Assembly: GCA_963838915.1 (NCBI GenBank)
Contig: CAWIUZ010000300.1
Span: forward strand, 3,283 to 67,282
Source: an uncultured Acidobacteriota bacterium
GTDB lineage: Bacteria > Acidobacteriota > Terriglobia > UBA7540
Reading direction: 5' to 3'
DNA: 64,000 nt
A program made the position numbers and the translations under genes. The notes beneath the pieces are model-generated. The model had not been told where the DNA came from. It searched no databases and worked only from the letters and a program-made list of their open reading frames with translations. The stretch's first letter is position 1. Each line of letters opens with the position of its first letter. Positions 24,712 through 41,133 of this stretch are shown one piece after another.

Positions 24712-26427
24712 ATGCAGCAGATCACTCATGATGTTTTGATTTTCGGAACCGGCCTTGCCGGGCTGCGCGACGCGGTCGAACTCTCGATCAAAACGCGCGG
24801 CAGCGCCGACATTGGGATCGTCTCAAAAGTGCAGGTCATGCGTGCGCATTCCGTGTGCGCGGAAGGTGGCACGGGAGCCGTGATGCGGCCCGAAGAAGGC
24901 GACAGCCTCGAACTGCACGCCTGGGACACCGTGAAAGGCTCCGATTTCCTGGCGGACCAGGACGTGGTGGACCGCTTCGTGAAGGCCTCGCCGGACGAAA
25001 TCCGGCTGCTCGAACACTGGGGATGCCCATGGTCGCGCCGCGAGGATGGGCGCATCATGCAACGGCCGTTCGGCGGCCATTCTTTTCCGCGCGCCTGCAT
25101 GGCGGCTGATAAGACGGGCTTCTTCGAAATGCAGGCTCTCTACGACACTCTTCTCAAGTACAAGAATTTCAGGCGCTACGACGAGTGCTTCGTGACTTCC
25201 CTGCTTCTCGAGGGCGGGCGCTTCGCAGGGCTGACGCTATACGATCTTCCTTCAGGCGAATTCTACGTGCTGCGCGGCAAGGCCCTGTTGATTGCGTCGG
25301 GCGGGTTGGGGAATCTTTACGGTTTCACGACCTATTCCCAAACCGTCACGGGCGACGGGCAGGCCATCGCCTACCGCGCTGGCCTGGCCCTCGAAGATCC
25401 GGAGTTCCTTCAGTTTCACCCTACCGGCCTCGTGCCCTCGGGAATTCTGATGACCGAGGGTTGCCGCGGCGAAGGCGGTTACCTGCGCAACAACAAGGGC
25501 GAGCGCTTCATGGAGAAATACGCGCCCAAGATGATGGAGCTTGCGCCGCGCGACATCGTTTCGCGCTCCGAAATGACGGAAATCCTCGAGGGTCGCGGCT
25601 TCCCGGGCCCTGACGGCCTTGATTACATCAACCTCGATTTGACCCACCTGGGCGCCGAGCGAATCAATAAGCGCCTGCCTCTTATTCGCGAAGTGTGCAT
25701 GAAGTTCTTGGGGATCGACCCGATCACTACGTCCATTCCCATCCGTCCCGTAGCGCATTACTCGATGGGCGGGATCGAAGCCGATATCAACGGCCGCACG
25801 AAAGTGGAAAACGTCTGGGCCGCGGGCGAGGTGGCCTGCCACTCGATGCACGGCGCCAACCGCCTGGGTTGCAACTCGACCGCGGAATGCCTCGTTTGGG
25901 GCGGCATCACCGGCGGTGAGATCGCCAAGTACCTGGCCGCAAGCCCCAAGCTGAGCGATCTGCCGGAAAGCAAAGCTCAGGAAGAAGAGAAACGCATTTT
26001 CGAAGGCCTGCTCAAACAAAACGGCTCCGAGAAACCTGCGCAAATCCGACGCGAACTTCGCACCTTGATGGATACACATGCCGGCGTCTACCGCACCGGC
26101 GAATCCATCCAAGAGGGTCTCGCGAAAATCGCCGAACTGAAGGAGCGGTTCAAGCACATCAGCCTTCAGGACAAGAGCCGCGTCTACAACACCAATTTGG
26201 TTCAAGCCCTCGAAACCGAGAACATGCTCGAGTTGGCCGAAGTGCTTCTATTCGCCGGCCTGGCGCGCCAGGAATCCCGCGGCGCCCACGCCCGGACGGA
26301 TTTCGCCAAGCGCGACGACGAAAAATTTCTCGGCCACTCGATGGTCTATTACACCTGCGGCGAGCCGAGGCTGGAGTATAAGCCCGTCACCATTACGAAT
26401 TGGAAACCGGTGGAGCGGAAATATTAA
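24712..26427 (+). CDS. sdhA: Succinate dehydrogenase/fumarate reductase flavoprotein subunit (divergent paralog, operon 1)
   Basis: 571 aa. Motifs are '[12 protein letters not shown]' (FAD), '[11 protein letters not shown]' (His for covalent FAD), 'FHPTG', '[10 protein letters not shown]', 'APRDIVSR' and 'HGANRLG'. Confidence 0.9.
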
Positions 26428-26705
26428 GAAATAGTGAGTGGTGAATTATAAATTCTTAGGGATGACAGCTGAATGCACGTTCCCACCGCGAAGCGGTGAA
26501 CCGTGAGTGGCCGTGGGCGCAAGCCCACGGTTGGCGGCTGAAAGACGCCGCAACCCCGAAGGGGTTGACCAAGAAGGATGTTCGGCCCCTTCAGGGCCGA
26601 GTGGCACTCGATGGTATGGCATCCGTGGCTTCCACCCACGGCTACTCACTGTGCTCCCCTTCGGGGAGCAAGGCCGGAAGTACACCGGATGATTGTGTAT
26701 CCATC

Positions 26706-26732
26706 TGTCATGCTGAGCGCAGCGAAGCATCC
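26706..26732. repeat. REP-like family B unit
   Basis: 'tgtcatgctgagcgcagcgaagcatcc', inside the 452-nt sdhA1-sdhC1 spacer. Confidence 0.75.
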
Positions 26733-26833
26733 CAGCAGTTCCTTTCGATGCCCGATGGCCGTTCTCACGAACGAACTGCTGAGATCCTTCGTCGCCCAAA
26801 AAGCCGGGTTCCTCAGGATGACAAGCAATTTGG

Positions 26834-26868
26834 CTGAATGCTGACGGCTGATAGCTGACGGCTTCTGC
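26834..26868. repeat. Heptamer tandem array (5 units, CTGANNG)
   Basis: 'ctgaatg ctgacgg ctgatag ctgacgg cttctgc', immediately before the SD and ATG of sdhC1. Confidence 0.75.
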
Positions 26869-26879
26869 AGGAGGCAGTA

Positions 26880-27317
26880 ATGGCCGCAATCCAACGGCAC
26901 GACAATCGGCTGGGAATCTGGGGATGGCTAGGGGGCGGGCGATGGGGCGTCGAGCGCTACGCTTACATCTTGCATCGCCTGACCGGCCTCGGTATTCTCT
27001 GCTACTTTTTGATGCACGTGGTGGTAACCAGCCTGCGCGCCACGGGCGTTTACTTGTGGGTCGAAGGCGGTCCGCTACACCAACCCCTTTTCAAGTTCGG
27101 GGAGTTTCTGGTTTTTGCGGCTTTTGCTTATCACGCTTTCAACGGCGTGCGTCTGGTGCTTGTTGAGCTCGGATTCGCGGTGGGTAAGCCCATCGAACCC
27201 GTGTATCCCTACAAGACGTCGCTGAACGTGCAGCGACCGCTGCTGATCGCTATGATGATTTTGGCGGCGCTGTTTCTTGCGGCGGGAGGTTATCAGTTCC
27301 TTGGATTGGCAAAGTAG
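26880..27317 (+). CDS. sdhC: Succinate dehydrogenase membrane anchor, cytochrome b subunit (operon 1)
   Basis: SD 'aggagg' lies 6 nt upstream. The 145-aa product has three TM helices. 'RYAYILHRLTGLGILCYFLMHV...AFAYHAFNGVRLVLVE' is clearly homologous to the SdhC of operon 2. Confidence 0.7.
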   Translation: MAAIQRHDNRLGIWGWLGGGRWGVERYAYILHRLTGLGILCYFLMHVVVTSLRATGVYLWVEGGPLHQPLFKFGEFLVFAAFAYHAFNGVRLVLVELGFAVGKPIEPVYPYKTSLNVQRPLLIAMMILAALFLAAGGYQFLGLAK

Positions 27318-27421
27318 CGCCGACCTTTAGAGCCTGCCCTGAGCGGAGCGAAGGGTCGGCACGTGCTGAGCTAAAGCTCAGCGCTACGAGATCAACCAGG
27401 GTGGTGGCGGCTTGAAAACGA

Positions 27422-27581
27422 CCCCTCACCCGTCCCGCGACGGCTGATGAATGCGCCGTCGCGCGACACCCTCTCCCCGCGGGAGAGGGCAGTAGTCGAA
27501 GATCACAGCCCTCTCCCCCTTGGGGGAGAGGGTGGACGGCAGCCGGCGGTTTCATCAGCCGGGGCGGGCCGGGTGAGGGGG
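27422..27581. repeat. REP-like family A: two inverted copies of a ~70-bp element
   Basis: The forward copy 27422-27490 is 'cccctcacccgtcccgcgacggctgatgaatgcgccgtcgcgcgacaccctctccccgcgggagaggg'. A reverse-complement copy sits at 27509-27581. Each contains the hairpin ccctctccc/gggagaggg. Confidence 0.85.
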
Positions 27582-27607
27582 TGGGCGGCGACTATTTTCG
27601 ACCAGAG

Positions 27608-27636
27608 CGAGATTCCTCGCTTCGCTCGGAATGACA
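27608..27636. repeat. REP-like family B unit (reverse orientation)
   Basis: 'cgagattcctcgcttcgctcggaatgaca'. Confidence 0.8.
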
Positions 27637-27661
27637 GCCGGCAATCGGCATAGGAGAGAAG

Positions 27662-28045
27662 ATGCGCGAAACGAAATACTGGACGTGGCACATGGCGGCG
27701 GGGGTGGTGATCCTCTTCCTGCTGGGCCTTCACATGCTGATCATGCATCTGGGCGGGACGACGCACTTGTTTGCTCCGCACGCAGGCGAAGCGGTCTCGA
27801 AGGCCAACAGCCTGTTTCGCGATGGCAGGCTATTTTTCACCGTCACTTACATTCTTCTGCTCGGAGTCGCTCTCTATCACGGCCTTTACGGCCTGCGGAC
27901 GATTCTGTTCGAGTTGACGCTGAAGCCTGCGGTGGAAAAACTTACGACTGTGGTCCTCGTGGTGGTGGGGTTGGGACTATTCGGATTGGGCACGTGGGCG
28001 GCCGTCGTTGCGCATGCCATCGCTCAAGCGGGAGGCAGGGGGTAG
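27662..28045 (+). CDS. sdhD: Succinate dehydrogenase hydrophobic membrane anchor subunit (operon 1)
   Basis: SD 'aggagag' lies upstream. The 127-aa TM protein reads 'WHMAAGVVILFLLGLHMLIMHL...LLLGVALYHGLYGLRTILFE' and is homologous to the SdhD of operon 2. Confidence 0.65.
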   Translation: MRETKYWTWHMAAGVVILFLLGLHMLIMHLGGTTHLFAPHAGEAVSKANSLFRDGRLFFTVTYILLLGVALYHGLYGLRTILFELTLKPAVEKLTTVVLVVVGLGLFGLGTWAAVVAHAIAQAGGRG

Positions 28046-28047
28046 CT

Positions 28048-28881
28048 ATGCCGGAAACCAGCAAAGCCGTACGCGAGATTAACTTTCACATCACGCGCTA
28101 CAATCCTGAAAGCGACCCCGCGCCTTACGTGAAGACTTACACCATCCCTGTGCGCGAGGGCATGACGGTGCTGGACGGGTTGCACTACATCAAAGAGAAC
28201 CTGGACGCGACGCTGGCCTGGCGCTACTCTTGCCGCATGGGCGTGTGCGGCTCGTGCGGCATGCTGCTGAACGGCAAACCGACCCTGGCCTGCAACACGC
28301 AAATCCTGCACATCGCCACGACCGATCTCACCGTTGGCCCGCTGCCGAATTTCGACATCGTGCGCGACCTGGTCCCCGATCTGACGACGATGTTGGACAA
28401 GCACCGCGCGTTGAAGCCTTACGTGACGCGCGCGGACGAGGACGAGATCAACGATCCGGCAGGCGAGTTTTATCAGTCACCGGAGGAACTCGAAGCCTAC
28501 CTGCAATTCACCTACTGCATAAAATGCGGCTGCTGCATGGCCGCCTGCCCCACTCTCGCCACCGACGCGCGCTACTTGGGACCGATGCCCTTGGCGGCGG
28601 CGGAGCGTTACAACCGTGACACGCGCGACGACGGGCGGCGCGAGCGCAACCAACTCACAGGCGGTGCGGGCGGCGCGTTCCGCTGCCACTACGCCGGCGA
28701 GTGTTCCCGTGCCTGCCCCAAGGGCGTGGACCCGGCGAGAGCCATCCAACTTCTCAAGCGGCAACTCGTTCTGGATTATCTCCACTTGGCTCGCCGCAAG
28801 AAACCATGCCAGAAATTGCACGGTCCGGGTGAAAGCAAGCCGCTTCCCAGCATCCCCGCCGCGCCGGCCAGGACGGTTTGA
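28048..28881 (+). CDS. sdhB: Succinate dehydrogenase/fumarate reductase iron-sulfur subunit (operon 1)
   Basis: ATG at 28048 lies 2 nt after the sdhD1 stop. Cluster motifs are 'CRMGVCGSCGMLLNGKPTLAC' (2Fe-2S), 'CIKCGCCMAACP' and 'CHYAGECSRACPKG'. The longer ORF from 27631 overlaps sdhD1 and is rejected. Confidence 0.9.
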   Translation: MPETSKAVREINFHITRYNPESDPAPYVKTYTIPVREGMTVLDGLHYIKENLDATLAWRYSCRMGVCGSCGMLLNGKPTLACNTQILHIATTDLTVGPLPNFDIVRDLVPDLTTMLDKHRALKPYVTRADEDEINDPAGEFYQSPEELEAYLQFTYCIKCGCCMAACPTLATDARYLGPMPLAAAERYNRDTRDDGRRERNQLTGGAGGAFRCHYAGECSRACPKGVDPARAIQLLKRQLVLDYLHLARRKKPCQKLHGPGESKPLPSIPAAPARTV

Positions 28882-29023: not shown

Positions 29024-29584
29024 ATGGCTACCAAGACCTTGCTTACCATCGATGATTATCTGGCGCTCGAAGAACCCGTGGGCGTGCGGTACGAATTAAG
29101 CGAGGGGGAACTCATCGTGACGCCGTCCGCTAATTACTTTCACAACGAAACCCGTGATGAATTGAACTCGCGCTTGAGATCATTTGTCAAAGCGCGCAAA
29201 CTGGGGGGCGTAACCAGCGAAACCGACGTGCAACTCGCGCACGATGTGGTCCGGCGTCCGGATGTGGCATTCATCAGCACTGGTCGCTTGCACGGAGTTG
29301 ATCTTCACAAAGTCCCATTACCGCTTTCCCCCGATCTCGTGATCGAAATCGTCTCCGAGAACGACCGCGCCGACGATTTGATCCTCAAGGTCAGGCAATA
29401 CCTCACTGCCGGAACCAAGGCCGTCTGGCTCTTCTACCCGAGCACGCACCTCGCTTACCGTTACATTCCCGGAAGGCTCGAGCCGGAAGTCCGGAGCGCC
29501 GATGCGGCGCATGCGTTTGAGGAACCCCAGATGCTGCCCGGATTGTCTATCCCACTGGCGGAGATCTTCACACAAGCCGAGTAG
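29024..29584 (+). CDS. Uma2-family (DUF820) endonuclease
   Basis: 'TIDDYLALEEPVGVRYELSEGELIVTPSANYFHNE...RRPDVAFI...SPDLVIEIVSENDRADDLILKVRQYLTAGTKAVWLF' is the PD-(D/E)xK Uma2 pattern. Confidence 0.85.
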   Translation: MATKTLLTIDDYLALEEPVGVRYELSEGELIVTPSANYFHNETRDELNSRLRSFVKARKLGGVTSETDVQLAHDVVRRPDVAFISTGRLHGVDLHKVPLPLSPDLVIEIVSENDRADDLILKVRQYLTAGTKAVWLFYPSTHLAYRYIPGRLEPEVRSADAAHAFEEPQMLPGLSIPLAEIFTQAE

Positions 29585-29820: not shown

Positions 29821-30234
29821 TTGAGTTTTAGGGCTGATCCAACAGCGAAGCGGACAGACATGGTCAAATTTCGAGAATACCTTACCTATCGGGGAGGACC
29901 GGGGCACTGGTCCTGGATTCTGCACCGCGTGACCGGCGTGGGCGTGTTTCTATTCTTGCTGGTCCACATCGTAGACATCGCATTAGTGGGTTGGGGTCCG
30001 GCGATTTTCAACAAGCTGCTTTTCCTTTACCGTTATCCGCCCTTTCGGGTGGGTGAGATCGCCTTGGTGGGAGCGGTGCTCTATCATGCCCTGAACGGGG
30101 TGCGGATTTGCGTCGTTGATTTCTGGCCGGAAGCCACGGTGGTCCACCGCAAGCTTGTTTACGCGGTGGGGATCGTATTTGCCGTGGTCTTCATTCCCAC
30201 GGCGATCTACATGGCAAGCACCATAATGAAGTAG
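29821..30234 (+). CDS. sdhC: Succinate dehydrogenase cytochrome b subunit (operon 2)
   Basis: 137-aa ORF (TTG start; the alternative ATG at 29860 gives 'MVKFREY'). It reads 'HWSWILHRVTGVGVFLFLLVHIVD...AVLYHALNGVRICVVD'. Confidence 0.75.
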   Translation: MSFRADPTAKRTDMVKFREYLTYRGGPGHWSWILHRVTGVGVFLFLLVHIVDIALVGWGPAIFNKLLFLYRYPPFRVGEIALVGAVLYHALNGVRICVVDFWPEATVVHRKLVYAVGIVFAVVFIPTAIYMASTIMK

Positions 30235-30296
30235 GGGCACATTGGGATGCACCCCCTGCGCCCCCACGAAGAACGCAGAGGAGAAAGAAGAAGCCG

Positions 30297-30665
30297 ATGA
30301 ACGGAGCGAGCACACCAAGACCGGAAAGCGGGCTGGAACTTTACGCCTGGATGTTCATGCGGGTGTCGGGCGTGGTATTGCTCTTTCTGGCATTGGGGCA
30401 TCTGCTGATTATGCACCTTATCCACAACGTCGATAATATCGACTTTCAGTTTGTGGCGCGCCGCTACGCCACGCCGTTCTGGAGGACGTACGACCTGGTG
30501 ATGCTCTGGCTGGCTCTCATTCACGGGCTGAACGGCATTCGAACCCTGGTGGGAGACTACGTGCGAGCAAAGGGCTGGCAGGTTGCCACCCTGGCCTCGC
30601 TTTATGTTTTTGGGTTTGTTCTTTTGACTCTCGGGTCGCTGACGATTTTAACGTTTCGACCGTAA
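30297..30665 (+). CDS. sdhD: Succinate dehydrogenase hydrophobic membrane anchor subunit (operon 2)
   Basis: 122-aa TM protein 'LELYAWMFMRVSGVVLLFLALGHLLIMHL...LALIHGLNGIRTLVGDY'. Confidence 0.7.
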   Translation: MNGASTPRPESGLELYAWMFMRVSGVVLLFLALGHLLIMHLIHNVDNIDFQFVARRYATPFWRTYDLVMLWLALIHGLNGIRTLVGDYVRAKGWQVATLASLYVFGFVLLTLGSLTILTFRP

Positions 30666-30670
30666 GGAAG

Positions 30671-30733
30671 TTGAGAGTCGAGAGTCAAGAGTACTCCGGA
30701 CTCTCAACTCTCAACTCTCGACTCTGGACTGCT
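30671..30733. repeat. Inverted pair of heptamer arrays (GAGAGTC family) forming a hairpin
   Basis: Left arm 'ttgagag tcgagag tcaagag'. Right arm 'gactctc aactctc aactctc gactctg gactgct'. The pair fills the sdhD2-sdhA2 spacer and ends 1 nt before the sdhA2 ATG. Confidence 0.8.
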
Positions 30734-30734
30734 T

Positions 30735-32459
30735 ATGGCACAACGCTACGATGCGGTGATTGTGGGAGCTGGGGGCGCGGGCCTTATGGCGGCGCTGCAA
30801 CTCGCCGGGCACGGCCAGGTGGCGGTGTTGAGCAAGCTTTACCCCACGCGCTCGCACACGGGGACGGCCCAGGGTGGAATTGGGGCGGCGCTCGGCAACC
30901 TCGAAGAGGACCATTGGGAATGGCACATGTTCGACACGGTGAAGGGCGGCGACTACCTTGTCGACCAGGACGCGGCGGAAATATTGTGCCGCGAGGCAAT
31001 CGAGACCGTGTACGACCTCGAGCACTGGGGTTTGCCCTTTAGCCGTACTCCTGAGGGCAAGATCGCGCAACGGCCCTTCGGCGGGCACACTAGGGATTAC
31101 GGCAAGGCAGCCGTGCGCAGGTCGTGTTACGCGGCGGACCGCACCGGGCACATGATTTTGCAAACCTGCTACCAGCAGTGCATCAAGAACCAGGTGCATT
31201 TCTACGATGAGTATCACGTGCTGGACTTGCTGGTCGAACAGGAACGATGCGCCGGAGTTGTGGCGATGTGCCTGGCCACTGGAGAGATTCACACCTTCCA
31301 TGCCAAGGCCGTGCTTTTCGCAACCGGCGGATGCGGGAAAATGTTCCGCGTCACCTCGAACGCCCATTCGCTGACCGGCGACGGCATGGCGGTGGCCTAC
31401 CGGCGCGGGATTCCGCTCGAGGACATGGAATTCTTCCAGTTCCACCCGACTGGAATCTACAAGATGGGAATTCTGCTGAGCGAAGCGGCGCGTGGAGAAG
31501 GCGCCATTTTGCGTAACAAGACAGGTGAGCGCTTCATGGAGCGCTACGCTCCCACGCTCAAGGACCTTGCCCCGCGTGACATGACGTCGCGCGCCATCTA
31601 CCAGGAAATCCGCGAAGGGCGCGGCATCGATGGAAAGAACTACGTTCACCTCGATCTGACCCATCTCGGCAAAGATGTGCTGGATAAGAAGCTTCCGGAT
31701 ATTACCGAATTCGTGCGTACCTACTTGGGTATTGAACCGCTCAAGGACCTAGTGCCCATTCAGCCGACTGCACACTACGCCATGGGCGGAATACCCACGG
31801 ATGTAGAGGGGCGGGTGGTCATCGATGAGAAAAGCACGCCGCTGCCCGGCTTCTACGCGGCAGGCGAAGTGGCCTGCGTTTCCGTCCACGGCGCCAACCG
31901 CTTGGGGACGAATTCCCTGGTCGACATTCTGGTGTTCGGGCGGCGCGGCGGGCGGCACGCGGCGAAGTTCATCAAGGAGAATGACTGGGCGCCATTGCCT
32001 GCCAAGGCCGACGAGCCCGCGCGGGCGCTCGCGAGCGAACTGAAGAATTCTCGCGGCACGGAGCGCCCGGCCGATATCCGTGACGCGCTCCAGGACGAGA
32101 TGATGGATAAAGCCTCGGTCTTCCGCGATGCCAAGGGCTTGACGGCGATGCGCGAACGGCTGCGCGAGCTTCGCGCCCGCTACCGGCAAGCCAAGGTCGA
32201 GGACCAGAGCGCTTGCTACAACACCGAATTGCTGGAAGTGATCGAGTTGGGCGGCCTGTTGGACCTTGCTGAGGTCCTGGTGGAAAGCGCTTTGGTCCGC
32301 CAGGAGAGCCGCGGAGCGCACTTCCGCGAGGACTTTCCAAAGCGCGATGATCCGAACTGGCTGAAACATACCCTGGCGTATAAGGGCGAAAAGGGGATCG
32401 AGTTTCGGTATAAGCCGGTGACGATTACGAAGTTCGAACCGAAGGAGAGGAAGTACTGA
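30735..32459 (+). CDS. sdhA: Succinate dehydrogenase flavoprotein subunit (canonical, operon 2)
   Basis: 574 aa. Motifs are 'YDAVIVGAGGAGLMAALQ', 'RSHTGTAQGGIGAALGN', 'FHPTGIY', 'EAARGEGAILRN' and 'HGANRLGTNSL'. Confidence 0.95.
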   Translation: MAQRYDAVIVGAGGAGLMAALQLAGHGQVAVLSKLYPTRSHTGTAQGGIGAALGNLEEDHWEWHMFDTVKGGDYLVDQDAAEILCREAIETVYDLEHWGLPFSRTPEGKIAQRPFGGHTRDYGKAAVRRSCYAADRTGHMILQTCYQQCIKNQVHFYDEYHVLDLLVEQERCAGVVAMCLATGEIHTFHAKAVLFATGGCGKMFRVTSNAHSLTGDGMAVAYRRGIPLEDMEFFQFHPTGIYKMGILLSEAARGEGAILRNKTGERFMERYAPTLKDLAPRDMTSRAIYQEIREGRGIDGKNYVHLDLTHLGKDVLDKKLPDITEFVRTYLGIEPLKDLVPIQPTAHYAMGGIPTDVEGRVVIDEKSTPLPGFYAAGEVACVSVHGANRLGTNSLVDILVFGRRGGRHAAKFIKENDWAPLPAKADEPARALASELKNSRGTERPADIRDALQDEMMDKASVFRDAKGLTAMRERLRELRARYRQAKVEDQSACYNTELLEVIELGGLLDLAEVLVESALVRQESRGAHFREDFPKRDDPNWLKHTLAYKGEKGIEFRYKPVTITKFEPKERKY

Positions 32460-32464
32460 AGAAA

Positions 32465-32535
32465 TTGAGAGTCAAGAGTCGAAAGTCGACAGTCGGCGGG
32501 GTGAAGGTTAAAGGCTGAAGTGTAAAGGCCAAAGG
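32465..32535. repeat. Two consecutive heptamer arrays (5 units TCNAGAG-like, then 5 units NNNAAGG)
   Basis: 'ttgagag tcaagag tcgaaag tcgacag tcggcgg' then 'gtgaagg ttaaagg ctgaagt gtaaagg ccaaagg', directly after the sdhA2 stop. Confidence 0.75.
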
Positions 32536-32580
32536 GTGCGCGCACAGCGATGAATGCGAAAGCCCGCCTTTGAATACACA

Positions 32581-32650
32581 GCCCTCTCCTCAGGGGAGAG
32601 GGTGTCCTGCTGCCGGCGCTTTCATCCGCCGGAGCGGGACGGGTGAGGGG
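32581..32650. repeat. REP-like family A copy (reverse orientation)
   Basis: 'gccctctcctcaggggagagggtgtcctgctgccggcgctttcatccgccggagcgggacgggtgaggggg'. It accounts for the spurious N-terminal extension of ORF 32570. Confidence 0.85.
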
Positions 32651-32674
32651 GCGGCCCAATCAGGGGAGTTACTG

Positions 32675-33373
32675 ATGCAAGTTGTTTTGAAAATCAAGCG
32701 GTTCAATCCTGAGTCGGACAAAGAACCGTGGTGGGGTGAATATAAGGTGGAAGCCGAGGCTACTGACCGGCTTCTGGACGCCCTGAACCATGTCAAATGG
32801 TACCTTGACGGATCGCTCACCTACCGCCGCTCTTGCGCGCACGGCATCTGCGGCTCGGACGCCATGGTCATCAACGGATCGAATCGTCTGGCTTGCAAGG
32901 AGCTGCTGAGGAATCTGGGCGAGCATATCACGGTCGAACCGATGCGCGGCTTTCGTGTGATCAAAGACCTATTGGTAGACATGGACGCGTTCCTGGCCAA
33001 GTACCGGAGTGTGAAACCCTACTTCATCACCCACTCACCGGAACCTGAGAAGGAAAGATTGCAATCGCCGCAGGACCGGGAAAAGTTCGATGACACCACA
33101 AAGTGCATCCTCTGTGGCGCCTGCACCACGAGTTGCCCTTCGTTCTGGGCGAACCAGGATTACGTTGGCCCGGCGGCGATCGTCAATGCCCACCGCTTCA
33201 TCTTCGACAGCCGCGACGAAGGCGCGGCGGAGCGTATGGAAATCCTGGATTCCGTAGACGGAGTCTGGCGCTGCCGCACCGTCTTCAACTGTCTGGAGGC
33301 TTGCCCCCGCGGCATCAACGTGACGCGCGCCATCGGCGAAGTGAAGAAGGCGTTGTTGTATCGCAAACTATAA
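32675..33373 (+). CDS. sdhB: Succinate dehydrogenase iron-sulfur subunit (operon 2)
   Basis: Starts at 'MQVVLKIKRFNPESD'. Cluster motifs are 'CAHGICGSDAMVINGSNRLAC', 'CILCGACTTSCP' and 'CRTVFNCLEACPRG'. Confidence 0.93.
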   Translation: MQVVLKIKRFNPESDKEPWWGEYKVEAEATDRLLDALNHVKWYLDGSLTYRRSCAHGICGSDAMVINGSNRLACKELLRNLGEHITVEPMRGFRVIKDLLVDMDAFLAKYRSVKPYFITHSPEPEKERLQSPQDREKFDDTTKCILCGACTTSCPSFWANQDYVGPAAIVNAHRFIFDSRDEGAAERMEILDSVDGVWRCRTVFNCLEACPRGINVTRAIGEVKKALLYRKL

Positions 33374-33534: not shown

Positions 33535-34785
33535 ATGACCCGCCGTACGATGCTCACCACTGCTGGACAGTCTTTAGTTCTATGCGCCGCGCCGCTTGTG
33601 CCGGGGCCGACCGCCGGGAGTTCTCCGCAAACCGGCGAACAGAAACCCTACGACCTGCTGATCAAGGGCGGAAAGGTAATCGATCCTTCGCAAGGCCTGG
33701 AGGCGGAACTTGACGTCGCGGTGCGCGGCGGGAAGATAGCAAGAGTGGCGCCGGATATTCCCGAGGGGCAGGCAGGGCAAGTCATCCGCGCCCAGGGGAA
33801 GATCGTAACGCCGGGGATCATCGACATCCATACTCACGTTTTCCCCTACGTCGGCCCGTACGGCATCGAGCCGGACCCCTACTGCGTGCGAAGGGGCGTC
33901 ACATCCGTCATCGATGCAGGAACTTCCGGCGCCTTCACCTTTCCCGCCTTTCGGCGCTTTATCATTGAGCGCTCGGCGACTCGGATTCGCGCTCTCCTGC
34001 ACGTGGTCTCGATCGGCATGGTAGCGGGCGGCACGCCCAACATGGGAGAACTCGAAGACCTGCGCTATTGCGTCCCGAAACTTGCCGTCGAAACGGCGAA
34101 TCAGAATCGGGAGTCAATCGTGGGATTCAAGATTCGCTTCTCGGAGCACTATACCGGACCCAATGATCTCGAAGGCATGAGGCGCGCTCGCGCGGCCGCG
34201 GACGAAGCCGGCTTGCCCATCATGATCCACATTGGTGGATCGTACACGCCCCTCAAGGAGTTCCTCGCGCTCATGAAAAAGGGCGATGTGGTGACCCACT
34301 CTTTCAATAGTCACCCCCATGGTTTGCTGGACGCCGGCGGCAAGCTCACACCGGAAGTGGTCGAGGCCCGTGAGCGGGGAGTTCTGTTTGACGTGGGACA
34401 CGGCGCGGGGAGCTTCTCTTTCGAGGTTATGGAGAAATGCTTGGGACAGGGCTTTTCACCGGACACCATTTCCAGCGATTTGTACTCCGCGAACATCAAC
34501 GGGCCCGTTTACGACCAGTTAACAACCCTTTCCAAGTTTCTGGTCTTGGGAATGAGCCTGCACGACGTCATTGCGCGCACTACCGTAAATTCTGCACGGG
34601 TCTTCAACTTCGGCGCCGAAATCGGAACTCTCAAACCAGGCGCCGAGGCGGATGTCAGCGTGCTGGAGTTGAAAGACGGAGAGTTCACCTTCACCGACTC
34701 TGACGGCAAGACCCGCACGGGACGCCAGAAACTTGAAGCTGTCACGACCGTGAAGGGTGGAAAGGTTTTCGAGCCCACTGGATGA
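33535..34785 (+). CDS. Amidohydrolase/deacetylase-family metallohydrolase with Tat-like signal
   Basis: 416 aa. It reads 'MTRRTMLTTAGQSLVLCAA', 'DLLIKGGKVIDPSQG...GKIVTPGIIDIHTHVF' (HxH metal motif) and '..GLPIMIHIGG'. Confidence 0.85.
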   Translation: MTRRTMLTTAGQSLVLCAAPLVPGPTAGSSPQTGEQKPYDLLIKGGKVIDPSQGLEAELDVAVRGGKIARVAPDIPEGQAGQVIRAQGKIVTPGIIDIHTHVFPYVGPYGIEPDPYCVRRGVTSVIDAGTSGAFTFPAFRRFIIERSATRIRALLHVVSIGMVAGGTPNMGELEDLRYCVPKLAVETANQNRESIVGFKIRFSEHYTGPNDLEGMRRARAAADEAGLPIMIHIGGSYTPLKEFLALMKKGDVVTHSFNSHPHGLLDAGGKLTPEVVEARERGVLFDVGHGAGSFSFEVMEKCLGQGFSPDTISSDLYSANINGPVYDQLTTLSKFLVLGMSLHDVIARTTVNSARVFNFGAEIGTLKPGAEADVSVLELKDGEFTFTDSDGKTRTGRQKLEAVTTVKGGKVFEPTG

Positions 34786-34800
34786 ACGCGTCGTGGCTGT

Positions 34801-34865
34801 CGCAGAGCGAAGCTCTGCGGCTTCAGGGTTTGGAAATGCGCCAAAACGCAGAGCTTCGCTCTGCG
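34801..34865. repeat. Two copies of a 19-nt self-palindromic unit
   Basis: 'cgcagagcgaagctctgcg' (34801-34819) and 'cgcagagcttcgctctgcg' (34847-34865). They can form two hairpins or one cruciform, a likely terminator after the amidohydrolase. Confidence 0.75.
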
Positions 34866-34935
34866 CCAGCCGGCTAAACCGACTAACTCATTGTGGTAAA
34901 CTCTCCCTATAGAATGTGAGAGGAGGGTTAACTGT

Positions 34936-36240
34936 ATGATAACCCGCCTGCGTGCCGAAAATTTCAAGTCATGGAAGGATACGGGCGACCTTCGGCTGGG
35001 CCGCCTCACCGGACTCTTTGGAACCAACAGCTCGGGGAAGACAAGCATTCTCCAAATCTTGCCTTTGCTCAAGCAGACCGCCGAGTTTTCAGACCGCAAC
35101 AGGGTTCTTTACACTGGGACGGATGAATCGCCAGTAACCTTGGGAACGCTTCTGGACATCATCCATGGTCACCACGCGGCTGAGGCGGTAAAGCTGTGTT
35201 TGGCCTGGACTGATGAACAATCGGTGGTGGACCATCAGAAGACGCAGCTTGATCCATTGTACAGCCCCAACGGGATTTCATTCAGCACTTCGATCTTCTT
35301 GGGGAAGGAGGGGCCGACGGTAGATTCCTTTCAGTATGGAATTGGCGAGCTCGGCCAACAACGGTTCGGAATGCGCCGGATCCTAGGGGCGGAGGAGAAG
35401 TATCAAGTAACTCAACAACTCGGCCAGGAGGAGTCCGTCAGTTCTCCAGTAGGCGCACCTATCAAGTGCTACGGTTTCCCGCCCGACGCGTTACGAGAAT
35501 TCGAACGCGTCGCATACTTACCTGATCTTCAACTTGCCTTTGAAAACCTATTCCGAAAGGTACACTACCTCGGACCGCTTCGCTCGTACCCTTGGAGAGT
35601 CTATGAATGGGGGGGAGAGAAGCCGCTGGACGCAGGATGGGATGGAGAGCAGGCAATTCCAGCCCTGCTGGCTTCGAAAACAGTGACCCAGGTCGCGAAA
35701 TGGTTGAAACAGATGGGTCTGATCTACTCCTTCAGGTTGCAGCCCGTGGGTGAATCGCAAACAATCTACCAGTGCCACGTCAAAATAACACCGAGCGCAA
35801 CGGATGTGCTTCTTCCCGACGTCGGATTTGGCGTGTCTCAAATACTCCCCGTCCTAGCCAATTGCGCGACGCTCCCAGACGGCTCAACGCTTCTTCTTGA
35901 GCAGCCGGAGATACACCTGCATCCTTTCGCTCAAGCCGCTTTGGCGGACGTCCTGATTGATGCAATTACGAACCGGAACTTGCAGATCATTGTGGAGAGC
36001 CACAGTGAGCACCTCCTGCGGAGAATCCAGCGACGGATTGCGCGAGAAGCTCTCAAACCAGAGGACACCGCCCTCTATTTCTGCCACCTTGAAAATGGAA
36101 GCTCCGCAATCGAGAAACTCGACGTGGATGCATACGGGAATATCAGGAATTGGCCGGCGGATTTCTTTGGTGACGAAATAGGTGAACTTGCCGACATGAC
36201 GGTCGCCGCCATGGAACGGCAGAAGGCAGGCCGCCAATAG
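34936..36240 (+). CDS. AAA/ABC-type ATPase with DUF3696-like C-terminal tail (COG4938-like)
   Basis: SD GGAGGG lies 8 nt upstream. Motifs are Walker A 'GTNSSGKTS', 'LLLEQPEIHLHP' (Walker B/D-loop), 'VESHSEHLL' (H-loop) and the tail 'YGNIRNWPADFFGDE'. The family name is from memory and was not searched. Confidence 0.85.
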   Translation: MITRLRAENFKSWKDTGDLRLGRLTGLFGTNSSGKTSILQILPLLKQTAEFSDRNRVLYTGTDESPVTLGTLLDIIHGHHAAEAVKLCLAWTDEQSVVDHQKTQLDPLYSPNGISFSTSIFLGKEGPTVDSFQYGIGELGQQRFGMRRILGAEEKYQVTQQLGQEESVSSPVGAPIKCYGFPPDALREFERVAYLPDLQLAFENLFRKVHYLGPLRSYPWRVYEWGGEKPLDAGWDGEQAIPALLASKTVTQVAKWLKQMGLIYSFRLQPVGESQTIYQCHVKITPSATDVLLPDVGFGVSQILPVLANCATLPDGSTLLLEQPEIHLHPFAQAALADVLIDAITNRNLQIIVESHSEHLLRRIQRRIAREALKPEDTALYFCHLENGSSAIEKLDVDAYGNIRNWPADFFGDEIGELADMTVAAMERQKAGRQ

Positions 36241-36756
36241 CCGTCATCATCGATACCAACGTCGGAGTCGTGGCCAACGGGCGCGGCCATGGCCCCCCAA
36301 GCGTCCCAGGATTGCGTCATTTCATGCGTGCGGCAACTAGAAGGGATCAAGGCCACAGGCAGAATTGTCTTGGATGACGGCTATCTGATACTTTCGGAAT
36401 ATCGAGCCCGATTACGCTCTGAAGGGGAACCGGGCGAAGGCGATGCTTTTCTGAAATGGGTATTGACCAATCAGGCGAATCCCCAAAGATGTGACCAGGT
36501 ACATATCAACCCCACTGAGGACGGAAGCAACTTTGCTGAGTTCCCTAATGACCCTGCTTTGACGGGCTTTGACCGGTCAGATCGCGTGTTCGTTGCAGTT
36601 GCACGCGCGCACCCGGACTCTCCTCCAATTCTAAATGCCGTGGACACCAACTGGTGGTTATTTCGGGCCGCACTCGAGCGGAACGGGGTGCATGTTGAGT
36701 TCTTGTGCCCACGGGATGTCGAGGGCTTTGCACGAACTCGCCACCTGAACAAGTAG
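36240..36756 (+). pseudogene. PIN-like nuclease domain protein, read across two frames
   Basis: Frame A (36240-36299) gives 'AVIIDTNVGVVANGRGHGP'. Frame B (ORF 36289..36756) gives 'QASQDCVISC..IVLDDGYLILSEY...FDRSDRVFVAVARAH...NAVDTNWWLF'. Together these supply the four acidic PIN positions. The frames meet at the C6 run 36293-36298. Frame A has no ATG/GTG/TTG after its stop at 36183. Confidence 0.6.
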
Positions 36757-37095
36757 CGGGTCGCCAACACGGTCACAGGTACACTTTTCTCGCTCAATTC
36801 TCTTTGACGCCGGTTTTCCTCTGCAAAATGGCCGAGTCCGCGCCGGACTCCGAAACTCGCGGTTCGGGTGCCAAAGTCTCCCAGTACGCGGAATTCCCTT
36901 GGCAAGCTACCCCTGAGAGTCTAGGCTGGAATCTGACGCCCGGCGGGCTCAGTGGACCGCATCGCCGGACTCGCCCGACCTTCGGCCCAGAGACGGCTTG
37001 GCGTGGCACCCCGCTTGAGGCGGGCGGTTGCGAGCCAAGAAGGTCTTGAACCCGTCACGGTGGCCCCCAATGAATTAATTCGACGAACGAACCGG

Positions 37096-37448
37096 GAATG
37101 TCTATGAAAACAAAGGATCGAGACGGCGTGACATGTAGGGGCCGGTTCGCGAACCGCCCCTAGGCCGGCCAGGAACGAAAAACGGTGGCGCCGACAAGAT
37201 CAGCCGCGCAGAATCGAGGGAACAAAGCGAGAATGTCTATGAAAACAAAGGGTCGGCCAAGAATCCAACCACCCCTGACCCCTCCTTATCCAAGGAGGGG
37301 AATCGCGAACTCCCCTCCTCGGGCGAGGTGGGGTTGGGGGTGGTGCGACTTTGCGTCCTCCGCGTTCTTTGCGCCGTCGCGCGAAACCGGTTGCAGGCAT
37401 TGAAAACGGTGGAACAAAGCGAGAATGTCTATGAAAACAAAGGGTCGG
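37096..37448. repeat. Dispersed direct repeats (3 copies of a 21-38 nt unit) in a non-coding block
   Basis: 'ggaacaaagcgagaatgtctatgaaaacaaagggtcgg' is identical at 37219-37256 and 37411-37448. A partial copy 'gaatgtctatgaaaacaaagg' sits at 37096-37116. GC-rich hairpins lie between the copies (37139-37165, 37280-37302). Confidence 0.8.
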
Positions 37449-37626
37449 GGAGTTGAGAAGTCAACGTGACTTGCCCGCGGCTTTCGTTGCGCCCCTCTTC
37501 CGCCGCAGACGCTATGTCTGTAGTATAATGGCAGATTAATTTCGCTGCGCCGGGATTTTATGCAGCACGCGCTCGGGTTCGTGCCCGATGGCCGCTGACC
37601 GGGCCGCAGAACAACAAGACCAAGCA

Positions 37627-39447
37627 ATGAAGCTTTCTCGTCGTCAAATCCTCGGTTCTTCGAGCGTCCTGTTGGGCTCCAAGCTCCTCGAAGTTCTTAC
37701 AACTCCTCTCTGGCGCTGGACACGCACGCCCACGCTCGAAGCGGCCACAGTTCCCCACCCGCAGGAAGCCTCGCCCGTGACTTTTGTGGACGTAGCGGAG
37801 GAGGCGGGCCTGAACGTGCCCAACGTCTGGGGCGGAGTGGCGAGTAAGAAGTACATCGTCGAAGCCAAGGGGAGTGGCGTAGCCTTTTTCGATTACGACA
37901 ACGACGGATGGCTGGATATCTACTTGACGAACGGCGTGCGGTTTGAAGAATTGCCGTACCCACCCGGCAAGGGTCCCATTCAACACCTGTTCAAGAACAA
38001 TCGCGACGGAACCTTCGCCGACGTCACAGAGAAGGCTGGGCTGGGCGTAACGGGATGGGGGACCGGGGTTTGCGTCGGCGATTACGACAACGACGGATGG
38101 GACGATCTGTTCAGTTGCTTCTGGGGCCACAACATTCTCTGGCACAACAACGGGGACGGGACTTTTACGGATGTGACAAAGAAGGCGGGGCTCTGGGAAG
38201 AGCGCGTGCGCTGGGGTTCAGGATGCACCTGGGTCGATTACGATCGGGACGGATTCCTCGACCTGTTTGTCTGCAACTACATTGAGCTGGATATCAAAAC
38301 CGTGCCGGTGCCCGGCGCGACCGGTTATTGCCAGTGGAAAGGCGTCCCCGTGATGTGCGGGCCGCGCGGCCTGCCGGGCGGCACGAACATCCTCTACCAC
38401 AACAACAAGGATGGCACCTTCAGCGATGTTTCGGATAAAGCGGGCATTCTGAAGCCGGGTCAACGGTATTCCATCACCTCCGTCGCATATGATTTTGATA
38501 ACGATGGCTGGCCGGACATCTACGTGGCAGTTGATTCTGAACCCAGCATCTTGTTTCATAATAATCACGATGGAACGTTTACGGATATCTCGGTCATGGC
38601 CGGCTGCGCCTATAACGAGGATGGGCAGGAACAGGCCGGGATGGGCGTCGGTGTCGGAGACTACGATTGCGACGGCTGGCTGGATATCTTCAAGACCAAT
38701 TTCACGGACGATACACCGGACCTTTATCACAACAATGGCGACGGCACTTTTACCGATGTCACCTTCGTCGCCGGCCTGGGCGTGAACACCCAGTACGTCT
38801 GCTGGGGCGCGGGGTTCATGGATTACGACAACGACGGTTGGACGGATATTTTTCACGTTACAGGACATGTTTATCCCGAGATCGAGAAATACCATCTCGA
38901 TGCAACCTTCAAGTCGCCGCGCCTGGTCTACAAGAATCTTGGCAACGGCAAGTTTAAAGATGTGTCGAAACAGATGGGCCCGGGGGTCACGGAACAATTC
39001 TCCAGCCGCGGCTGCGCCTTCGGGGATTACGACAACGATGGTGACATCGATGTCCTGGTCCTCAATATGAACGATCGTTTTTCCCTCCTCCGCAATGACG
39101 GAGGAAACAAGAACAATTGGATCAAACTCAAGTTAATTGGCACGCAGTGCAACCGGACCGCGGTTGGCGCGCGGGCCTTTGTGCGAACCGGAAAACACAC
39201 GCAGATCGACGAGGTCCACTGCGGAACTTCCGTAATGTCCCAGAGCGATTTGCGCTTGCATTTCGGCGTTGGCGACACGAAAGTGATCGATGAAATAGCG
39301 ATCAAATGGCCTACGACTCAGAAGACCGAGAAGTTCACCAAAGTAGAAGCCAATCAGATTCTCACCATTAAAGAAGGCTCCGGAATTATAAAAGCCGAAA
39401 AGCTGGACAAGCAGGAAAAGCCGTGGAAACTCGTGAGCATGAAGTAA
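37627..39447 (+). CDS. CRTAC1-family protein (FG-GAP/VCBS repeats + ASPIC/UnbV domain), Tat-like signal
   Basis: 'MKLSRRQILGSS', repeated 'DYDNDGW(L/P/T)DI' FG-GAP motifs, and a C-terminal 'NNWIKLKLIGTQCNRTAVGARAFV...HCGTSVMSQSDLRLHFGVG' UnbV/ASPIC signature. Confidence 0.9.
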   Translation: MKLSRRQILGSSSVLLGSKLLEVLTTPLWRWTRTPTLEAATVPHPQEASPVTFVDVAEEAGLNVPNVWGGVASKKYIVEAKGSGVAFFDYDNDGWLDIYLTNGVRFEELPYPPGKGPIQHLFKNNRDGTFADVTEKAGLGVTGWGTGVCVGDYDNDGWDDLFSCFWGHNILWHNNGDGTFTDVTKKAGLWEERVRWGSGCTWVDYDRDGFLDLFVCNYIELDIKTVPVPGATGYCQWKGVPVMCGPRGLPGGTNILYHNNKDGTFSDVSDKAGILKPGQRYSITSVAYDFDNDGWPDIYVAVDSEPSILFHNNHDGTFTDISVMAGCAYNEDGQEQAGMGVGVGDYDCDGWLDIFKTNFTDDTPDLYHNNGDGTFTDVTFVAGLGVNTQYVCWGAGFMDYDNDGWTDIFHVTGHVYPEIEKYHLDATFKSPRLVYKNLGNGKFKDVSKQMGPGVTEQFSSRGCAFGDYDNDGDIDVLVLNMNDRFSLLRNDGGNKNNWIKLKLIGTQCNRTAVGARAFVRTGKHTQIDEVHCGTSVMSQSDLRLHFGVGDTKVIDEIAIKWPTTQKTEKFTKVEANQILTIKEGSGIIKAEKLDKQEKPWKLVSMK

Positions 39448-39634: not shown

Positions 39635-40318
39635 ATGAAGCGATATGGCGAGCATCGTTTCCCGGGAAAGCTCTTTGTGGTTGAGGGCATCGACGGTTCG
39701 GGCAAGTCCACCCAGTTGATGTTGTTGCACGAGTGGCTGCAAGCAGAAGGCTATGGGGTCATCTTCAGCGAATGGAATTCCTCGCCGCTCGTCCGCGACA
39801 CCACGCGGCGGGGAAAGAAGAAGCAGATGCTCACCCCCGCCACGTTTTCCTTACTTCACGCTACGGATTTTGCGGACCGGATAGAGCACAACATTATCCC
39901 TCTGCTCAAAGCGGGGGCGGTGGTGCTCTGCGACCGGTATATTTACACGGCCTTCGCCCGCGACGTGGTGCGCGGCATGGATCGCAAATGGGTTCGGGAG
40001 CTCTACAGCTTCGCCGTCAAGCCCACGGCGGCTTTCTATTTCCGCGTCCCCCTCGAGGTTGCCATGAAGCGCATCCTGGTGGGGCGCAGCGGCGTGAAGT
40101 TCTATGAGGCGGGGATGGACATGGGGTTACACGAAGACCCGGAGCAGAGCTTCCAGATGTTTCAAGGAAAGATCCTTGAAGAGTACGAAGGCATGATTGC
40201 GGAATTCGACCTCACGAGCGTAGACGCGACGCTTCCTATTGAAGAACAACAGGTCCAGATGCGTCAGATTGTTAAGGCCAAGCTGGCGCAGGCCAAACGA
40301 CTGAGGGTGGCCCCATGA
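39635..40318 (+). CDS. Thymidylate-kinase-like P-loop kinase (paralog 1, intact Walker A)
   Basis: 'LFVVEGIDGSGKSTQ' P-loop and 'VLCDRYIYTAFA' DRY-type motif. It diverges from canonical Tmk after the DRY motif. Confidence 0.8.
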   Translation: MKRYGEHRFPGKLFVVEGIDGSGKSTQLMLLHEWLQAEGYGVIFSEWNSSPLVRDTTRRGKKKQMLTPATFSLLHATDFADRIEHNIIPLLKAGAVVLCDRYIYTAFARDVVRGMDRKWVRELYSFAVKPTAAFYFRVPLEVAMKRILVGRSGVKFYEAGMDMGLHEDPEQSFQMFQGKILEEYEGMIAEFDLTSVDATLPIEEQQVQMRQIVKAKLAQAKRLRVAP

Positions 40319-41133
40319 GAGAAACCTATTCGGTGACATTGCCCAAAATGGGCCTGGCGGAACTCACAGGCCGGTTAATTGTGATTGAGGGCACCGACGG
40401 CGTCGGCCGCTCCACTCAGATCAAGCTGCTAAGGCCGTGGCTGGAGCAGCAGGGCCACGCGGTGCTGGATACCGGCATCAAGCGGTCGCAGTTGGCGTCG
40501 AGGGGAATCCAACAAGCCAAAGAGGGGCACACTCTGGGGCGCATTACCTTGAGCCTCTTTTACGCCACGGATTTCGCCGACCGGCTCGAGCACGAGATTA
40601 TTCCCGCCCTGCGCGCGGGATTTGTGGTCCTCACCGACCGATACATCTACTCGCTGATGGCTCGAGCGATTGTGCGCGGCCTCGACCCGGCATGGATCCA
40701 TAACGTGCACAGCTTCGCGCTGAAACCCGACGCCACGTTCTATTTACGCATCGGCGTCGACGACCTGATTCCTCGCGTGGTCTTTTCCACGGGATTTGAC
40801 TATTGGGAATCCGGCATGGATCTCTATCCCAGCGAGGACATGTACGAGAGTTTCCGCAGGTACCAGACGGCTCTGCTGGCGCAATTTGACGCCATGGCGC
40901 AGGAATACGACTTCACCGTGATTGACGCTTCGCCGGGTATCCAAACGGTTTTTGAGCGGCTACGGGCGGGTATTTCACGCGTTCTTAAGGGTGAACCGCG
41001 CGAACCGCTCTTCGAAGTGCCTGCCGCGGCGCCGGCAGTCGCGAGTCCCGCCCCCAGTGAAGCGGCAGGTGCTGGAAAGGCGAAACGAGCTGGAGCAGAA
41101 AAGCAGACAGGTGACCTGCGAGAATCCGCTTGA
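40315..41133 (+). CDS. Thymidylate-kinase-like protein (paralog 2, Walker A Lys replaced by Arg)
   Basis: There is a 4-nt ATGA overlap with paralog 1. It reads 'LIVIEGTDGVGRSTQ' (GxxGxGR instead of GK) and 'VLTDRYIYSLMA'. The C-terminal tail is Ala/Pro-rich. Confidence 0.75.
   Translation: MRETYSVTLPKMGLAELTGRLIVIEGTDGVGRSTQIKLLRPWLEQQGHAVLDTGIKRSQLASRGIQQAKEGHTLGRITLSLFYATDFADRLEHEIIPALRAGFVVLTDRYIYSLMARAIVRGLDPAWIHNVHSFALKPDATFYLRIGVDDLIPRVVFSTGFDYWESGMDLYPSEDMYESFRRYQTALLAQFDAMAQEYDFTVIDASPGIQTVFERLRAGISRVLKGEPREPLFEVPAAAPAVASPAPSEAAGAGKAKRAGAEKQTGDLRESA

Follow-up and report, generated by a model that had tools for sequence, protein, structure and literature searches.

The window, i.e. 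the whole stretch of 64,000 nucleotides that we analysed, carries on its forward strand an intact gene for an ABC-type ATPase with a C-terminal DUF3696 tail (34936-36240), followed directly by a gene for a small PIN-like protein that is split over two reading frames. The ATPase assignment as the HEC-03 ATPase component is based on the open reading frame, its motifs, Pfam and PADLOC-DB. The ORF encodes 434 amino acids, ends with the stop codon TAG at 36238-36240 and contains GTNSSGKTS, LLLEQPEIHLHP, ESHSEHLL and NIRNWPADFFGDE. An earlier note on this DNA had listed this ORF, these motifs and a tail resembling DUF3696, all of which are present, and Pfam matched each of the ATPase families it had proposed: AAA_15 (E-value 3.1e-21), AAA_21 (9.2e-20) and DUF3696 (2.3e-9). 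Judged from its letters, GAGGAGGG at 34920-34927 on the forward strand, ending 8 nt 5' of the ATPase ATG, resembles a Shine-Dalgarno sequence and may serve as one.

The labels of the two HEC-03 components differ between sources: the original paper calls the ATPase HEC-03A and the PIN protein HEC-03B (10.1101/2024.01.29.577857), while PADLOC-DB has them reversed, with HEC-03B for the ATPase and HEC-03A for the PIN protein. Residues 1-429 of our ATPase align with positions 1-452 of the 458 in the PADLOC HEC-03B profile (1.8e-119). The NsnB profile of Menshen matches it as a full-length relative (3.8e-54), and partial matches to AriA (1.3e-23), GajA, Old, AbiLi and PtuA cover the conserved ATPase ends only.

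The PIN-like gene

Frame 3 directly after the ATPase TAG reads AVIIDTNVGVVANGRGHGPP. The N-terminal segment of the PIN-like effector, AVIIDTNVGVVANGRGHGP, is found there at 36240-36296 on the forward strand, with the first catalytic Asp in DTNV. The remainder of the effector, from QASQDCVISC to the stop, lies in frame 1, which is the ATPase frame, at 36298-36756 on the same strand and contributes E54, D112/D115 and D136. It is contained in the called ORF 36289-36756, which reads from its ATG at 36289 as MAPQASQDCVISC...LILSEY...FDRSDRVFVAVA...AVDTNWW up to the stop at 36756. Deleting one C from the run of six at 36293-36298 joins the two frames as ...GRGHGPQASQDC..., and we could reproduce the earlier observation that the gene is readable only through such a joint at this run. 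The repaired protein matches PADLOC HEC-03A over profile positions 3-153 of 159 (4.9e-30) and no other PADLOC model.

The AlphaFold2 model of the repaired protein, built with 27 aligned sequences, has a pLDDT of 91.1 and a pTM of 0.88. Its top match in a Foldseek search against PDB is chain 7vwo_A of an M. tuberculosis toxin-antitoxin complex (probability 1.00, TM 0.53/0.61), which we take to be the VapC toxin, followed by the PIN entries 3i8o, 2fe1 and 3ix7 and then by the PIN domain of SMG6. These VapC/PIN matches have probabilities of 0.9-1.0 and TM scores of 0.4-0.6 with weak E-values of ~1e-2, and the predicted structure appears to resemble VapC and other PIN structures to a moderate degree. 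At the sequence level, no Pfam match was found at E<=1, the PIN models included, nor was any found in NCBIfam, and a search of the PDB sequences with the PIN-family profile returned noise only and no PIN match.

The acidic residues are conserved across 84 homologues, with D6 at 100%, E54 at 99%, D112 at 95%, D115 at 99% and D136 at 99%, and so are T7 (99%) and N8 (100%) next to the first Asp. All of the D-E-D-D residues are present across the two frames of the window. The protein is ~165 aa long, and four cysteines are conserved in the homologue alignment. The model, the Foldseek matches and the 95-100% conservation agree with the suggestion of the earlier note that the small ORF has a PIN fold, and the conserved residues are the four acidic positions that it had named.

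Homologues and gene linkage

We found 355 database relatives of the PIN family, and 415 candidate stretches encode a PIN relative in the species-representative genomes (185,579 in the collection). Of the 80 best loci, 79 have an ATPase homologue (38-72% identity) immediately 5' of the PIN gene and in the same orientation; in the sole exception the PIN gene is located at the contig edge. The two families, whose co-occurrence the earlier note had left to be checked, are hence strictly linked among these loci. Homologues are also carried by plasmids that are conjugative or mobilizable, where their neighbours include AbiEii, Hok/Gef, a helicase fragment and genes of a similar kind. The HEC-03 models of PADLOC match these plasmid homologues along the full length as well, and hhalign aligns them with the family alignment at 8.5e-46.

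Start of the PIN-like gene

From the upstream stop (36183-36185) to the C run, frame 3 contains no ATG, GTG or TTG. It does contain an ATA at 36237-36239 on the forward strand, which overlaps the ATPase stop as ATAG and was picked out by homologue comparison and dN/dS. The window and the 15 loci examined in its clade (11 distinct sequences) have this ATA without variation, always in an ATAG or ATAA overlap. It lies five codons 5' of the catalytic Asp, at precisely the position taken by ATG or GTG in other clades. Among the 80 best loci, the PIN start overlaps the ATPase stop in 53; an ATG, GTG or TTG is at this overlap position (xTGA) in 40, and the arrangement is TAATG or TGATG in 13. Two Caldilineaceae loci have GTA at the PIN start position.

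The 19 codons after the ATA have a dN/dS of ~0.09, indicating purifying selection, and their third positions vary in 14 of the 19 codons against 4-5 for the first and second positions. The low dN/dS implies that this segment is translated. Translation of the PIN gene probably starts non-canonically at the ATA, with AUA initiation coupled to the upstream termination. Gene callers miss this conserved ATA, which overlaps the stop of the upstream gene, and therefore shorten the PIN proteins throughout the clade; the database entries are 135-146 aa long. The earlier note had taken the missing canonical start as a hint that this copy may be inactivated or mis-sequenced. Its absence from frame 3 is confirmed, but it is not a sign of damage here since the ATA is invariant across the clade. 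A fusion of the ATPase with the PIN protein by a -1 frameshift was also considered and rejected, as the ATPase stop is not preceded by a slippery heptamer and the majority of homologues have an ATG or GTG of their own at this place.

The extra C in the C run

As closest relatives we compared loci from Terriglobia genomes and from contigs of peat metagenomes. Each of the 15 loci examined in this clade, which represent 11 distinct sequences, has a single frame across the site, reading AGC/AGT CCC/CCT CAA and encoding ...GRG(Q/H/R/L)SPQAS... through the C run. The window reads GGC CCC C CAA at the same site, i.e. one C more, so that the C6 homopolymer at 36293-36298 (forward strand) has a +1 insertion relative to the clade. 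The same gapless C6 allele is found in nine assemblies from nine JGI and Logan sample accessions, namely 3300000567, 3300009700, 3300001356, 3300030707, 3300027854, 3300027905, 3300030659, SRR5214707 and SRR27973136. Its presence in nine assemblies shows that the extra C results from a real mutation and not from the error of a single assembly. The earlier note had warned that this copy could be inactivated or mis-sequenced; the second concern is largely removed by the nine assemblies, and the first is well founded as the frameshift is real and stands against in-frame relatives.

The carriers of the C6 allele are a widespread, essentially clonal population present in many peat metagenomes. The pair is 100% identical across all contigs carrying the allele, which leaves no divergence from which to measure selection since the frameshift. 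A scan of metagenome contigs for the exact junction gave 0 matches for both C5 and C6, and the closest hit of a second scan was 86%, the strain being evidently absent from that collection. Another genome with a frameshift at the same site was encountered only once (locus L081), and there the ATPase is also frameshifted within ~200 nt, which looks like an assembly error rather than a true recurrence.

Based on the reading frames, the change from C5 to C6 falls after codon 19 or 20 of the PIN gene. Normal decoding would give a ~49-aa peptide with the DTNV strand, or a 155-aa protein if the ATG at 36289 is used; the latter product is without the first strand (beta-1) and the invariant catalytic Asp. 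The PIN frame is otherwise undecayed. Two of 43 highly conserved positions differ (Q64E and K117V), and our check for extra decay found that two such deviations are typical of intact homologues. As the gene is undecayed outside the shift, the lesion must be very recent or tolerated.

Genomic setting

The pair is flanked by an amidohydrolase gene upstream and a gene for an FG-GAP/UnbV_ASPIC protein downstream, and sdh genes are also nearby. The flanks are as the earlier note had described them, with the amidohydrolase, a CRTAC1-like gene, palindromic units and a repeat block, and the lower GC content that it had seen by eye is a real but small dip, at 0.550 for the pair compared to 0.586 for the window and 0.59 and 0.58 for the 10-kb flanks. 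The only defence candidate in the neighbourhood is a Uma2/PDC-S03 gene ~5 kb upstream, the other neighbours being metabolic. An Rfam search of 34700-37700 gave no match, and a promoter and terminator scan gave nothing above the shuffle expectation.

Positions 34795-34871, just 3' of the amidohydrolase stop, form an inverted repeat whose two arms of 25 nt are 96% complementary and separated by a 27-nt spacer; the arms occur nowhere else in the window. It is probably a transcription stop or a boundary hairpin, and it marks the left edge of a more divergent, pair-bearing segment. Compared with the related strain L090 (86% identical), the nucleotide identity is 96% up to 34793 at the amidohydrolase end and ~84-85% from 34791 onward, the pair itself being ~85% identical, and the DNA downstream of the pair in L090 is unrelated to that of the window. 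The site is therefore variable, as L090 differs at the pair and downstream of it. None of the contigs with an identical amidohydrolase or ASPIC gene provides an empty insertion site. They all carry the identical pair except for one (L105), which ends at 34902, 5' of the pair.

The pair is followed by a repeat-bearing non-coding block of 834 nt with three copies of a 45-nt direct repeat at 37077-37448. The earlier note had taken this block as a boundary of the module. We found it in the window's own strain, and it is missing from L090 and every other fetched locus; judging by its distribution, it is not part of the module, and neither are the other flanking repeats.

Identity of the pair and its possible mechanism

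HEC-03 stands for Hma-embedded candidate 03, one of nine such systems, and was described as an ABC ATPase with a PIN protein "similar to VapC family ribonucleases" (Payne et al., bioRxiv 10.1101/2024.01.29.577857). In E. coli, a HEC-03 homologue reduced phage plaquing, both of its genes were required and its induction was toxic (10.1101/2024.01.29.577857). The window has the arrangement of this system, with the ATPase gene first and the PIN gene adjacent to it on the same strand, abutting or overlapping, while its two genes are not both intact owing to the +1 insertion in the PIN gene. The earlier proposal of a defence module with an ATPase sensor and a PIN nuclease is upheld by the HEC-03 matches, the linkage and the PIN fold. 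What has to be given up is its view of the pair as an unnamed and uncharacterised system, since PADLOC places both proteins in HEC-03, which has already been tested against phages. We consider it likely that the pair is a chromosomal copy of HEC-03 in a peat-soil Terriglobia (Acidobacteriota) bacterium, with a frameshifted effector and probably inactive.

HEC-03 consists of two translationally coupled genes, the first for an ATPase of the ABC type that ends in a helical DUF3696 tail and the second for a small PIN-fold nuclease with the metal-binding residues D-E-D-D. If it acts like Menshen, PARIS, Septu and Gabija, an oligomer of the ATPase may bind the PIN effector through the DUF3696 tail, as predicted for NsnC of Menshen and its ATPase NsnB, to which the window ATPase is related. 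The ATPase may also, as in such systems, sense an infection cue, upon which ATP binding or hydrolysis could release or activate the nuclease. The nuclease would most likely cut RNA as VapC does and thereby stop phage growth; RNA is suggested as the target because of the VapC-like fold and because an RNA-ligase-family gene lies directly 3' of the PIN gene in four loci. The effector step is expected to be lost in the window copy. As HEC-03 in its published form needs both of its genes, the locus most likely is a defence system that was inactivated recently and still has its ATPase intact.

Alternative explanations

The ATPase could be thought of as a housekeeping repair protein of the RecF, RecN or SMC type, with the adjoining ORF being incidental, as its N-terminal P-loop has weak matches to SMC_N (3.3e-4, 20.6 bits) and RecF (0.0076, 15.5 bits). 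These matches span only ~40-47 residues around Walker A and are far under the curated cut-offs of 40 and 172 bits, respectively. The full-length match is to HEC-03B, the homologues are constantly paired with a PIN gene, and the family is patchy in its distribution and plasmid-borne. The RecF/RecN origin that the earlier note had named as a danger to its proposal is effectively refuted by the HEC-03B match and the PIN linkage, and this explanation is extremely improbable. It is also highly unlikely that the gene is truly intact (C5) and that the additional C arose in sequencing or assembly or belongs to a minor phase variant. The lesion does sit in a homopolymer and the remaining ORF is pristine, as such an explanation would have it, but the gapless C6 in nine assemblies from nine sample accessions argues against an artefact, and six C make a short homopolymer for phase variation.

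A different possibility is that the locus is functional through recoding. GGC CCC CCA is a type of sequence that allows some +1 slippage by tRNA-Pro, and both CCC-C slippage and stalling at Pro-Pro are known phenomena. After a weak AUA start, the P-site tRNA-Pro would shift from CCC to the overlapping CCC, restoring ...GHGPQASQ... and giving a trickle of the full-length toxic PIN protein. Such a slip at the C run gives a protein identical to the homologue-guided repair, nothing else in the PIN gene is decayed, the C6 allele is fixed in nine assemblies, and the toxicity of HEC-03 on induction means that low expression could be tolerated or even favoured. No intact relative shifts here, however, all 15 of the 15 clade loci being in frame, and neither a Shine-Dalgarno-like stimulator nor a slow codon can be read at the site. 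Background slippage would yield roughly 1% or less of a product that is already weakly initiated, and with zero divergence among the contigs the fixation may reflect a clonal population only. Slippage may produce a little full-length PIN protein, while recoding as an account of the whole locus seems unlikely. We could further speculate about a two-step translational throttle on an abortive-infection effector, with the clade-wide AUA start (termination-reinitiation) as one step and the CCC-CCA +1 slip in the window lineage as the other, which we regard as quite improbable. The 155-aa product of the ATG at 36289 might instead be a catalytically dead PIN-like partner with a non-nuclease role, comparable to NsnC of Menshen. 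An in-frame ATG exists, the gene callers call the ORF, and the DUF3696 ATPases of Menshen do pair with inactive PIN-like domains. Yet the truncation removes the modelled beta-1, helix 1 and the 100%-conserved Asp, no Shine-Dalgarno sequence precedes the ATG at 36289, the inactive PIN of Menshen is fused to a separate nuclease domain that is absent here, and no other family member has such a form. We hold this to be very unlikely.

Implications

For annotation, the pair should be labelled as HEC-03 rather than as a new system, and its effector as a frameshifted pseudogene. Catalogues built on the truncated gene calls lose the catalytic N-terminus of the PIN protein across the whole acidobacterial clade. 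The locus provides a case from a natural peat population in which a toxic effector has been knocked out with the sensor ATPase left intact, which is in line with the view that abortive-infection effectors are costly and easily discarded. Two curiosities are left, the ATA start seen throughout the clade and the frameshift seen throughout the population.

Comparison with known systems

In pairing an ABC-type (AAA_15/AAA_21) ATPase with a nuclease effector, the window pair is similar to PARIS (AriA/AriB), Gabija (GajA/GajB), Septu (PtuA/PtuB) and OLD/AbiL. The effectors of those systems are Toprim, HNH or helicase proteins and not PIN proteins, and the systems have no DUF3696 tail. The effector itself has the PIN fold and the four acidic residues of VapC in VapBC, with 7vwo_A as its best structural match. 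The pair differs from VapBC in having an ATPase as the partner and no VapB antitoxin, and the window PIN protein differs from VapC in its larger size of ~165 aa and in the lack of detectable sequence similarity. To our knowledge, the four conserved cysteines of the PIN homologues are not known from VapC.

Menshen (NsnA-NsnB-NsnC) is closer with respect to the ATPase, which in the window is likewise an ABC ATPase with a DUF3696 tail, and to the logic of pairing an ATPase with a PIN protein. Its DUF3696 ATPase is paired with an inactive PIN-like domain fused to a separate nuclease, and AlphaFold 3 predicts that NsnB uses its DUF3696 tail to hold this domain of NsnC (PMC12065111). Unlike in Menshen, the window PIN protein keeps its D-E-D-D residues and would itself be the effector, and the pair has no third gene and no ParB/DUF262 sensor (NsnA). 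The NsnB-like ATPase does not have NsnA and NsnC beside it, and the repaired PIN protein has no match among the NsnC models of PADLOC.

HEC-03 agrees with the window pair in both families, in gene order, strand and abutting arrangement, and in full-length profile matches. The window copy differs in that it is not embedded in Hma or another defence island, which was the route of discovery and is not strictly defining for HEC-03, in that its PIN gene is frameshifted, and in that its clade has ATA in place of the ATG or GTG start. The window copy is a new, degenerate member of the known and experimentally supported HEC-03 system.

Results and discussion

The N-terminal segment of the PIN-like nuclease is, judging from the sequences compared, translated despite having no canonical start codon. 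An ATA occupies the probable start position of its gene in the window (36237-36239) and in the related HEC-03 loci of the Terriglobia clade, i.e. L007 (7923-7925), L010-L013 and L090-L099, and this codon, which overlaps the stop codon of the ATPase gene as ATAG or ATAA, is invariant in the window and all the loci of this clade examined. HEC-03 loci of other clades have ATG or GTG at the equivalent position. The dN/dS across the 19 codons downstream of the ATA is ~0.09 in the Terriglobia-clade loci, and it is this value that argues for translation. The public gene calls of the PIN proteins in this clade, at 135-146 aa, are N-terminally truncated. In the Caldilineaceae MAG L081 (8040-8300) two frameshifts lie within ~200 nt, one in the tail of the ATPase and one in the N-terminus of the PIN protein, which most likely reflects homopolymer assembly error rather than biology.

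The pair is followed in the window by a non-coding block of 834 nt (36757-37590), in which a 45-nt repeat occurs three times (at 37077, 37212 and 37404) alongside an inverted repeat with 34-nt arms (37268-37344). The block has no match in Rfam. We observed this block only in contigs of the same strain, with no second copy elsewhere in the window. The metagenome contig L104 is identical to the window over the amidohydrolase gene and the pair but unrelated to it upstream of 33444 (L104 1-514), and this break just upstream of the amidohydrolase gene suggests that the region varies in structure or that the assembly is chimeric.

Two other window genes match PADLOC candidates. A Uma2-family putative restriction endonuclease gene (29024-29584, +; PDC-S03, 6.5e-20) lies between two sets of succinate dehydrogenase/fumarate reductase genes (24712-28881 and 29821-33373). 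These sets are paralogues of each other, both encoding a flavoprotein and an Fe-S subunit and the second additionally two Sdh_cyt membrane subunits. Two thymidylate-kinase-like genes lie side by side, and the second of them (40315-41133, +) weakly matches PDC-M51B (1.4e-9).

HEC-03 may in some genomes include a third gene or act with a partner in RNA repair. On two plasmids of proteobacteria and two chromosomes of myxobacteria, the gene directly 3' of the PIN gene is annotated as an 'RNA ligase family protein' (L107 8927-9619, L108 7928-8629, L057 10510-11169 and L077 10513-11166). The window encodes no such gene, and PADLOC has no model for the one found next to HEC-03.

Four cysteines are 95-100% conserved among the 84 PIN homologues, namely a CxxxC motif, i.e. 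C26 (36314-36316) and C30 (36326-36328) of the repaired protein, and the distant C85 and C157. Their conservation suggests a possible metal or disulfide site, and we know of no such cysteine site in VapC-type PIN domains.
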